From NCBI RefSeq assembly GCF_003334785.1, contig NZ_QOWV01000011.1: 64,000 nucleotides of DNA; one strand, given 5' to 3'. This document shows positions 57,077-59,329 of this stretch, one piece after another; the stretch's first letter is position 1, and the number at the start of each line of letters is the position of its first letter. The notes below the pieces were generated by a model that was given only the letters and a program-made list of their open reading frames with translations, had not been told where the DNA came from and made no database searches. Both the position numbers and the translations under genes were made by a program. This DNA is from Escherichia coli. GTDB lineage: Bacteria > Pseudomonadota > Gammaproteobacteria > Enterobacterales > Enterobacteriaceae.

Positions 57077-59329
57077 TTATAAATAGAGATAGTTCGGCGG
57101 TTCTCCTGTTTTCCCTAAAAGAAGAGCGCTACGCCCAGGAATATTGATATTTAGAGTTCCGCCTCTAAGCGTAAATACTTTACCAGGGGGGATAATTTTT
57201 CGGGTATTATTAATAATAATGTTAACGCTATTACTCCCCATGTTTTTGTATATTCCAGGTTGCAATTTGTTAGGCCAGGTACCTTCAACTTCTTCGTTTC
57301 CTTTATTTATTATAACTAGTCCATCATGAGGAGAGTGATTAATGTTCACAGAATCCCCACGACTAAAGGCCAGAACGTTTTTAGTTGCAGATACACCCTC
57401 AAATGCGCTCCATATTCCTGCTTTATCTATATATAATGCGTGGAATTCATTGTAGAGCTGCTGATAGGTAGAGCAACCTTTATTAAGCTACGCCTCACCG
57501 CCGACACGCGTGGACCCATCATAATTTTTAATTTCAGTCGTTGATTTTAATACTTGGCCATCCCAGTAAACTAAAGGCCTGCTGAACGGCAGAGCGGCTA
57601 TATATGCCATTGCTAATTGTTCATCTTGTTGATGGTTAAATAGAAAGTCATTGAAAAGATTACCATTGTTAGGAAAATCGTGGTTAATGTTAATCAATAT
57701 CCGTCTTTCTGATGGGATACTTGAGATTGTGGAACCCGGTTTTGATGCAAGGGTTTGAAGATCTCCACCAAATGAAAAGGCTTTTATCGTTTTCATGAGC
57801 AATGAAAAATCAATGGCGCTTAAATCATCTCTTTCATAAAGCAGTGATGACATTTGTTGTTCATCCAACTGACAAGTTACCAGATATTCCATGTAATTCA
57901 TAACGGCTTTTTTATGATATTTTGGGTTAAATAAGTTAGTATTGTGTAACCGCTCATTATAATTTTTAAGCGGTGGGGTTATTGATCTTTCTATTTGTTC
58001 ATGTTTTGAGTGTTTTGCCGCATCATAACGTAAACCTCGTACGCCATATTTTCGCATTTCACGAACGTATTGATTTTGCAACATAATAACCTGGTCACTT
58101 TTGGGTGTTGTTTTAGGCATTCCATTTAAACGCTTTTCTTTTAATGCATGGAGGTTTTCCCATTCATCCTTAGAGATGTTATCTTTACTTGCTTCGAAGT
58201 CTTTTGCAGTGAGATGTATATCTTCTGGATGGATTTGTTTACGTTCTTTTGTTACTGGATCTTTAATGAATGGAATCAAAACCTGACCTTGCTAATAGCC
58301 AGGGATACCACCTTCTATATCTTTACTGATCTTCGCTCGTATATCAGCAGAGGGATAATCCAGGTCATTTTTACCACTACCCCCAATTCCCATAAAGTTA
58401 AAGGTATAATCAGGAATGATATCGATACCAAATTTTTTAGCATCTTTAACCAATGCAATAAAATCCTGCAAATCTCCCATTGGATTATGGATGGTACAAA
58501 GATCTTCGGGTTGATAAGCATGAAACCAGTAACCCTTTTCTTCTTCGGGAGTTTCTGGTCCGTCGGCGCGGAAAGTTGTCACTGGAGGGATTTGTATATA
58601 CCCATAATGGCAACGTGCAAATTCAGACATATTTTCTCTGATCTGCTGGTAGGTGGCATTAAAAGCATGAAGAATCGCTTCGCCAGGTTTTTTGGGGGTG
58701 ATGATTTCACATTGTGATTTCTGAACAGCAGTAAGAGATTTACGCTCAAGTGTTTGCCGTAGATGTTCTAGATTGATTAATATTTTAAATGTTTCTTGCT
58801 GTCCGGAAGGTGACGTCACGTTAATATTATATACATCGGCTGCCAGCTCATAGTCAGGAATGTTAATAGCATATGCAACATATTTATCTTTTGGGGAAGG
58901 TTTGTCAGATATAATGTGGGTGAAATGTTCAGCACGACCATACTGATAAACACCGCTGTTATCACCTCTTTCAATCATTGTATCTCGTTGATAAACCTAT
59001 GTTTTTCTTTCTCCTATCCTGTCTGGCGCTGTAATGCTACGCTGTGCTGCTTTATTCAACTCTCGGTAAGTTGTATCTGGAGAAAGGGAAATTTTATAAT
59101 CGTTTTTTAACAGATCATTAATAACTTTTTCTGCGTGAAAAGTTGATATAATTTCTCTGTCTTTTAATCCTTGAGGGTAAACTCCACAAGAATTAATAAT
59201 ATTTGTTATACAGTTTAGATATTCTAATGTATTTAATTTGGAATTTAGATCCCCGTCAGTAATGTTCCATGATAACAATGTGGGGTTGTCGATAGGTAAA
59301 TTTCTGGGTCCTGGTTTTATAGAAAACAT
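57077..59329 (-). pseudogene. ygaQ: ygaQ-like GH13 (alpha-amylase family) gene interrupted by three in-frame TAG codons
   Basis: One continuous frame of about 750 codons, broken only by TAG at 58997-58999, 58292-58294 and 57488-57490; terminal TAA at 57077-57079; GH13 region II-like GLRYDAAKH. Confidence 0.8.

Follow-up and report, generated by a model that had tools for sequence, protein, structure and literature searches.

The ygaQ pseudogene of Escherichia coli and its three in-frame amber codons

The ygaQ locus of Escherichia coli K-12, split into ygaQ and ygaR in an older annotation, is recorded in RefSeq as a pseudogene with an internal stop under the name 'alpha amylase C-terminal domain-containing protein', and the literature treats ygaQ as a horizontally acquired, H-NS-silenced gene that has an intragenic promoter (PMC7229825). 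Here we analyze the locus in a 64,000-nucleotide stretch of E. coli DNA (contig NZ_QOWV01000011.1 of assembly GCF_003334785.1, hereafter the window), where ygaQ is a 750-codon frame on the minus strand that is interrupted by three TAG (amber) codons. It is the already annotated, and already known, E. coli ygaQ pseudogene: K-12 and the window have the same three internal stops and the same neighbors (ileY, ypjCB and glaH-lhgO-gabD), and the genes are either 100% identical or differ by a single base over 2,253 base pairs. The explanation we favor, to which we give a probability of about 0.9, is that this is a unitary pseudogene, the outcome of point mutations of an ordinary kind together with drift and recombination, and not a gene that depends on suppression.

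The window and the MG1655 record CP009685 differ at only 3 of 10,253 bases around ygaQ, at 58745 (within ygaQ), 55635 and 63150. The base at 58745 is the sole difference from the sampled K-12 records within the gene and is nothing of substance; it is apparently a change private to those records, as all other alleles agree with the window. Judged by bit score, the window allele is identical to that of NCTC9104.

An earlier note made from the sequence alone had described a single frame with three amber codons, carrying the GH13-like motif GLRYDAAKH, and had offered two readings of it: a recent nonsense-only inactivation or a frame that becomes full length under amber suppression. Translation of the minus strand from 59329 to 57077 gave 750 codons plus the terminal TAA. 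The frame contained no frameshifts, and its internal stops numbered exactly three, each of them TAG (codons 111, 346 and 614). This confirmed the frame, its length, the coordinates of the three TAG codons and the lack of any frameshift or internal TAA or TGA. Because the two remaining frames across 57077-59329 contain 39 and 86 stops, the 750-codon frame is the remnant of a real gene rather than a product of chance. The frame and its stops are as follows.

57077..59329, minus strand: ygaQ pseudogene, a GH13-like frame of 750 codons with three in-frame TAGs (from translation; a RefSeq pseudogene in K-12)
58997..58999, minus strand: TAG at codon 111, from TGG (Trp) by a G-to-A transition (from the allele alignment; Trp kept in E. 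albertii)
58292..58294, minus strand: TAG at codon 346, from TGG (Trp) by a G-to-A transition (Trp kept in E. albertii and in distant GH13 proteins)
57488..57490, minus strand: TAG at codon 614, from TGG (Trp) by a G-to-A transition (W614 invariant in seven of seven aligned GH13 relatives)
57077..57079, minus strand: the natural TAA stop of ygaQ (the identical stop is used by every intact allele)

Origin and population history of the three amber codons

The window allele was aligned with 21 other E. coli ygaQ alleles, seven of which are intact 750-codon genes with RefSeq WP_ proteins. Codons 111, 346 and 614 are TGG in all seven intact alleles, and relative to these each TAG arose from a Trp codon whose middle base underwent one G-to-A transition. 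The intact E. albertii orthologue (738 residues, 60% identity) has Trp at all three amber positions, and the invariance of W614 extends even to distant GH13 proteins of cyanobacteria. The orthologue alignment for which the earlier note had called thus places TGG or Trp at every one of the TAG sites, and shows that the three stops are derived TGG-to-TAG changes in an otherwise colinear allele. A TGG codon can become a stop only through G-to-A, which gives either TAG or TGA, and the stops are all amber because all three are the same type of mutation at the same type of codon.

The window allele carries about 15 derived substitutions, of which eight are sense-strand G-to-A, the commonest change, and two are C-to-T. 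Cytosine deamination is known to be asymmetric between the replicating strands, and an excess of G-to-A in a lagging-strand gene agrees with this; such deamination may be the source of the excess here, the difference between 8 G-to-A and 2 C-to-T changes not being significant. Deamination of 5-methylcytosine within CCAGG gives rise to Dcm-site amber hotspots, as in the classic lacI amber spectrum. The ygaQ stop of the O157 type, CAG413 to TAG inside GACCAGGTT (CCAGG), is an event of precisely this sort and is explained by it, whereas the ancestral contexts of the three window TAGs, ACATGGGTT, TATTGGCAA and GCGTGGCTT, are without CCWGG. Deamination at a Dcm hotspot was therefore ruled out as the origin of the window TAGs.

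To this alignment we added counts from 5,426 complete E. coli genomes, made with 55-mers centered on each site. The megablast word of 28 bases means that a match requires an identical center base, and the population data consist of these per-site counts plus the 21 sampled haplotypes. The ygaQ sequence (2,253 bases) matched in 4,109 of the 5,426 genomes, near full length in 3,368 of these, and 1,317 genomes had no ygaQ match. TAG614 was found in 2,403 genomes versus 1,655 with TGG614, TAG346 in 1,082 and TAG111 in 1,041 (895 of these with exact K-12-type flanks). The carriers were of human, livestock, seawater and soil origin from several continents, and because they span many hosts and countries the stops long predate laboratory history. 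The three ambers are old segregating polymorphisms of E. coli. The suggestion of a recent nonsense-only inactivation therefore holds in its second part, as there are three TGG-to-TAG changes in a colinear allele, but 'recent' can be kept only in a relative sense for stops present in 2,403, 1,082 and 1,041 genomes.

The stops occur in several combinations. Among the sampled haplotypes TAG614 is found alone (L005 and L006) or together with TAG346 (L004 and L022), TAG111 is found alone (L002, L020 and L023), and all three are found in the window, in K-12 and in L018. A matrix of single-nucleotide polymorphisms showed that the alleles are recombination mosaics. In L020 and L023 the K-12-type 5' segment, with TAG111 and its cluster of derived changes, is joined to an O157-like 3' segment that has TGG346 and TGG614. 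Because the alleles are mosaics, the triple-amber allele may have been assembled at least in part through recombination among alleles that had already been inactivated. A linear order of mutation (614, then 346, then 111) had been drawn from the first 15 alleles and the frequencies; it was weakened by the finding of TAG111 alone on other backgrounds and by the mosaicism, and is unproven. A 'K-12-specific mutation shower' between gene positions 322 and 560 was ruled out, as the same segment haplotype is present in L020, L023 and L018 and is thus a recombining segment.

Sister alleles carry a variety of other lesions. There are 1-bp deletions at gene positions 581 (L002) and 1193 (L020 and L023), a 1-bp insertion at gene position 1640 (L008 and L009), a 3-bp deletion (L023) and a change of GAA107 to TAA (L020). 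The frameshifts were found in alleles that bear a TAG (L002, L008, L009, L020 and L023), downstream of the stop. The CAG413 to TAG change of O157:H7 (L003) and its relatives, at the equivalent of window positions 58091-58093, is present in 304 genomes and is seen again on a K-12-like background in L021. K-12-like flanks surround it in 5 of the 304 genomes, which suggests that the change is recurrent. Insertions of IS5, IS1 and IS3 plus several 5' truncations were also found among the E. coli ygaQ matches. In the K-12-like allele of the enterotoxigenic E. coli strain L4_E1441 (L019), TAG111 has become CAG while TAG346 and TAG614 are still present, a stop-to-sense change of the kind expected from neutral drift once a gene is dead. 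The earlier note had said that orthologues with dispersed frameshifts, or with different kinds of stop at unrelated sites, would make this plain pseudogene decay, and that is the pattern found in the sister alleles.

Where it is intact, ygaQ is functional and constrained. Pairwise Nei-Gojobori comparisons among the seven intact alleles gave ratios of nonsynonymous to synonymous substitution rates (dN/dS) of 0.06-0.24, with synonymous divergence (dS) up to 0.18, and it is from these ratios that we conclude that the intact gene is under purifying selection. The window allele compared with the nearest intact allele gave a dN/dS of 0.36, plus the three stops. Its derived 5' segment contains G108R, W111 to stop, H128Y, P132R and P187L versus five synonymous changes, which is consistent with relaxed constraint.

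The GH13-like protein encoded by intact alleles

The described enzymes closest to intact YgaQ are the GH13 alpha-amylases of the AmyE and Pseudoalteromonas haloplanktis type (1BAG, 1UA7, 3DC0 and 1AQH). Shared with these are the (beta/alpha)8 barrel, the C-terminal beta domain, and the region II Asp, region III Glu and region IV His-Asp. YgaQ differs in that identity is only about 16-18%, the match to the Pfam catalytic domain is marginal (E = 2e-4), and Phe takes the place of the region I His. It also has an extra N-terminal region of about 215 residues and long barrel insertions, and has no evident signal peptide. The domains map to the window as follows.

57773..58540, minus strand: remnant of the GH13 catalytic (beta/alpha)8 domain, residues 264-519, PF00128 (E = 2.2e-4 on the intact allele)
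58010..58036, minus strand: GH13 region II motif GLRYDAAKH, residues 432-440, with the putative nucleophile Asp436 (D436, K439 and H440 invariant)
57116..57385, minus strand: remnant of the alpha-amylase C-terminal beta-sandwich, residues 649-738, PF02806 (E = 3.2e-6)

The GLRYDAAKH motif reported earlier is indeed present, and its Asp436 aligns with the invariant Asp of GH13 region II. In the alignment with GH13 relatives the catalytic residues D436 (region II), E481 (region III) and H550-D551 (region IV) are all invariant. Region I reads DYTFNF; its Asn is kept and the His of the canonical DxxxNH is Phe in the E. coli and E. albertii proteins and in a metagenome relative. The best sequence matches in the PDB (to 1.6e-7) were Ruminococcus bromii Amy16 and the B. 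subtilis and Pseudoalteromonas alpha-amylases, and matches to the alpha-amylase models of NCBIfam were sub-threshold only. The AlphaFold model is of low confidence (mean predicted local distance difference test score, pLDDT, of 57) and was used only for the GH13 assignment and not for the N-terminal 215 residues. Foldseek matched this model only to GH13 enzymes, with 1UA7 and 3DC0 (B. subtilis alpha-amylase) near the top at E = 1e-16 and TM scores of 0.66-0.69 on the target. The N-terminal region of about 215 residues gave no match to a known domain.

The YgaQ family is tiny and consists of the E. coli and E. albertii proteins plus one gut-metagenome relative of 824 residues (34% identity). 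The latter is encoded at 4916-7390 of a human gut contig (L017), where its neighbors are InvH, leucine-rich repeat, FidL-like, MarT-like regulator, EAL and invasin/intimin-like genes. This neighborhood hints at, and proves nothing about, a tie between the YgaQ family and virulence or type III secretion-associated islands.

Explanations for an amber-only frame

If ygaQ is a unitary pseudogene, its ancestor would have been a cytoplasmic-looking protein of 750 residues composed of the N-terminal region of about 215 residues, a divergent GH13 barrel with the Asp/Glu/Asp residues, and the alpha-amylase C-terminal beta domain. The gene is placed between ileY and glaH in AT-rich DNA that is silenced by H-NS, and at this site it has remained intact in E. 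albertii and in many E. coli lineages, where it is under purifying selection. In the lineage of the window TGG codons 111, 346 and 614 each underwent a G-to-A change to TAG, any single one of which ends translation, and homologous recombination has shuffled these old polymorphisms into mosaics, of which the K-12-type allele holds all three. The lack of frameshifts in the window allele would then be the luck of a young and short decay history, and we ascribe it to luck because sister alleles do carry frameshifts. Non-suppressor cells would make no full-length product, and the loss would have been neutral or conditionally tolerated. Read in this manner, ygaQ provides a clean and quantified case of pseudogenization within a species of a horizontally acquired, H-NS-silenced accessory gene. 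In some E. coli lineages the gene has stayed intact under constraint, in others it has been inactivated independently many times, and recombination appears to have stacked old nonsense polymorphisms in one allele.

Several observations weigh against so simple an account. All single-base changes of one intact allele were enumerated under several mutation spectra, in which the probability that a substitution is nonsense was 0.037-0.065. TAG made up 0.23-0.36 of the nonsense changes, such that three of three TAGs has P of 0.013-0.05 under generic spectra and reaches 0.125 only if sense-strand G-to-A dominates the spectrum. The share of TGG-to-TAG among nonsense changes was 0.03-0.16, which puts three of three TGG-to-TAG at P below 0.005. 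The occurrence of three nonsense changes among about 15 substitutions has P of about 0.02-0.07 (0.09-0.23 when conditioned on the first hit), and the neighboring ypjCB pseudogene likewise holds a single in-frame TAG. These statistics are post hoc, the locus having been picked as odd, and they make the pattern mildly unusual, leaving room for a selective or mutational bias. We do not think that the amber-only pattern needs a special mechanism. Three identical Trp-to-amber changes, recurrent TAG111 on unrelated backgrounds and the TAG of ypjCB are the reasons for entertaining a non-chance origin, which we consider unlikely. It could be a local strand-biased G-to-A process in an H-NS-bound, AT-rich, lagging-strand island, or selection that favored ever shorter products from a gene with harmful truncated forms, and the latter could retain the 110-residue stump with its reported nuclease and mitomycin C tolerance activity.

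A conditional gene, in which a natural or laboratory amber suppressor or leaky termination would allow read-through of the ambers to a full-length GH13 protein, is in our judgment extremely improbable. The internal stops are all the same least used stop codon in a frame free of frameshifts, and the base that follows two of the three TAGs is C, a comparatively weak termination context. However, the TAGs are derived, polymorphic and unconserved, TAG-bearing alleles have gone on to gain frameshifts, a TAA and further ambers, and in L019 TAG111 was exchanged for CAG with ambers 346 and 614 unchanged. A search of the 64-kb window with ARAGORN and Rfam found no suppressor tRNA, only Ser-GCT (serV), two Arg-ACG (argV-type) and the CAT-anticodon ileY. 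Basal read-through of UAG is about 1e-4 to 1e-2, and three serial events would compound to a negligible yield. Moreover, suppression by supE or supF would substitute Gln or Tyr for conserved Trp residues, one of them the invariant W614. Programmed read-through and suppressor-dependent genes thus share with ygaQ only a long frame in which the in-frame stops are all of one kind; ygaQ differs from them in having unconserved stops, no downstream constraint and no suppressor tRNA in the window. The proposal that the frame becomes full length under amber suppression was not borne out. A trace of full-length YgaQ is to be expected in hosts with strong supE or supF suppression or with a deficiency in release factor 1, and would be an artefact of the host rather than a property of the locus. 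A sequencing or assembly artefact can be dismissed outright, as each of the three bases recurs in roughly 900-2,400 complete genomes that were sequenced independently of one another.

Two further proposals give the truncations a selective value. In adaptive loss by serial truncation, inactivation would have been selected and later, more 5' ambers favored for eliminating truncated GH13 fragments that carry a cost. Such selection would account for both the nonsense excess and the frequency order 614 > 346 > 111, and it is in keeping with at least a dozen independent inactivations in one species whose intact alleles are under purifying selection, with the somewhat over-represented nonsense among the derived changes, and with amber frequencies that drop from 3' to 5'. 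We nevertheless regard it as unlikely. The gene is H-NS silenced (PMC7229825), so the cost of a truncated product should be small; the occurrence of TAG111 alone on other backgrounds together with the mosaic alleles leaves the linear 3'-to-5' order unproven; and the statistics are weak and post hoc, a 3'-to-5' order having a 1 in 6 chance in any case. The other proposal is that the W111 stop made a 110-residue protein (the 'YgaQ' of the older K-12 annotation) with a function of its own, such as a nuclease acting on single-stranded DNA flaps that aids mitomycin C tolerance. In its favor, overexpression of the 110-residue ASKA clone, driven by isopropyl beta-D-thiogalactopyranoside, was reported to give mitomycin C resistance in ruvAB mutants, and the purified 110-residue protein had nuclease activity that was lost in a multi-site mutant (PMC4725251). 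Yet deletion of ygaQ gave no mitomycin C phenotype (PMC4725251), the locus is H-NS silenced (PMC7229825), and the fragment, an N-terminal portion of a larger protein, contains no recognized domain. Codon 108, just before the stop, has a derived Gly-to-Arg change, and sister alleles with GAA107 to TAA or TAG111 to CAG argue against constraint on the exact 110-residue product. We therefore consider such exaptation of the stump very unlikely. On the pseudogene interpretation the '110-residue YgaQ protein' of the ASKA library is the stump of a 750-residue GH13-like protein, and a functional study would be better served by an intact allele (WP_001543101.1 or the E. albertii orthologue) than by the K-12 sequence.

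Flanking signals and other features of the window

Three further features belong to the ygaQ frame and its flanks.

59337..59342, minus strand: Shine-Dalgarno-like GAGGAA, 8-13 nucleotides upstream of the ATG (read from the upstream sequence)
57039..57066, minus strand: terminator-like hairpin directly after the TAA, with an 11-bp stem containing 7 G-C pairs (from a consensus scan only)
57803..57952, minus strand: fragment 'ygaQ 1.1', in the literature an H-NS-repressed, AT-tract-dependent intragenic promoter (mapped from the primers of PMC7229825)

An in-frame TAG lies 15 nucleotides upstream of the ygaQ ATG, and a run of T residues follows the strong hairpin 3' of the TAA. A scan for promoter-like sequences gave no enrichment over shuffles.

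The G+C content of ygaQ is 37% versus 51% for the whole window, and the gene lies at one end of an AT-rich stretch reaching from about 56.9 kb to the window end. Across this region (56900-64000), which spans ygaQ, ileY and ypjCB, G+C content falls abruptly from the 54-62% of the gab/glaH operon to 31-45%. The region was probably acquired horizontally. A recombinase fragment is also present within it according to the K-12 annotation. In K-12, ygaQ is flanked on one side by tRNA-Ile (ileY) and the ypjCB/ypjA island remnant and on the other by glaH-lhgO-gabD. The ileY-ygaQ-glaH synteny is common to E. albertii, where an ileY-type tRNA and glaH flank the orthologue.

The ypjCB pseudogene (DUF5507/YpjCB family) lies on the plus strand at 60715-62088, and its single in-frame TAG is at 61195-61197 (codon 161), which is CAA (Gln) in the intact O157 allele. 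All four internal stops of the AT-rich stretch, the three of ygaQ and the one of ypjCB, are amber.

Elsewhere in the window, a plus-strand tRNA cluster at 27488-27935 contains serV and only two argV-type tRNA-Arg(ACG) genes and precedes yqaB. K-12 MG1655 presumably has four tandem Arg copies at this site, and the window strain may have contracted the array. The Rfam scan gave no match inside ygaQ; its matches at gathering score included the small RNA MicA (30846-30917, minus strand) and naRNA4 (CssrE) (37515-37592, minus strand), both ordinary known features.

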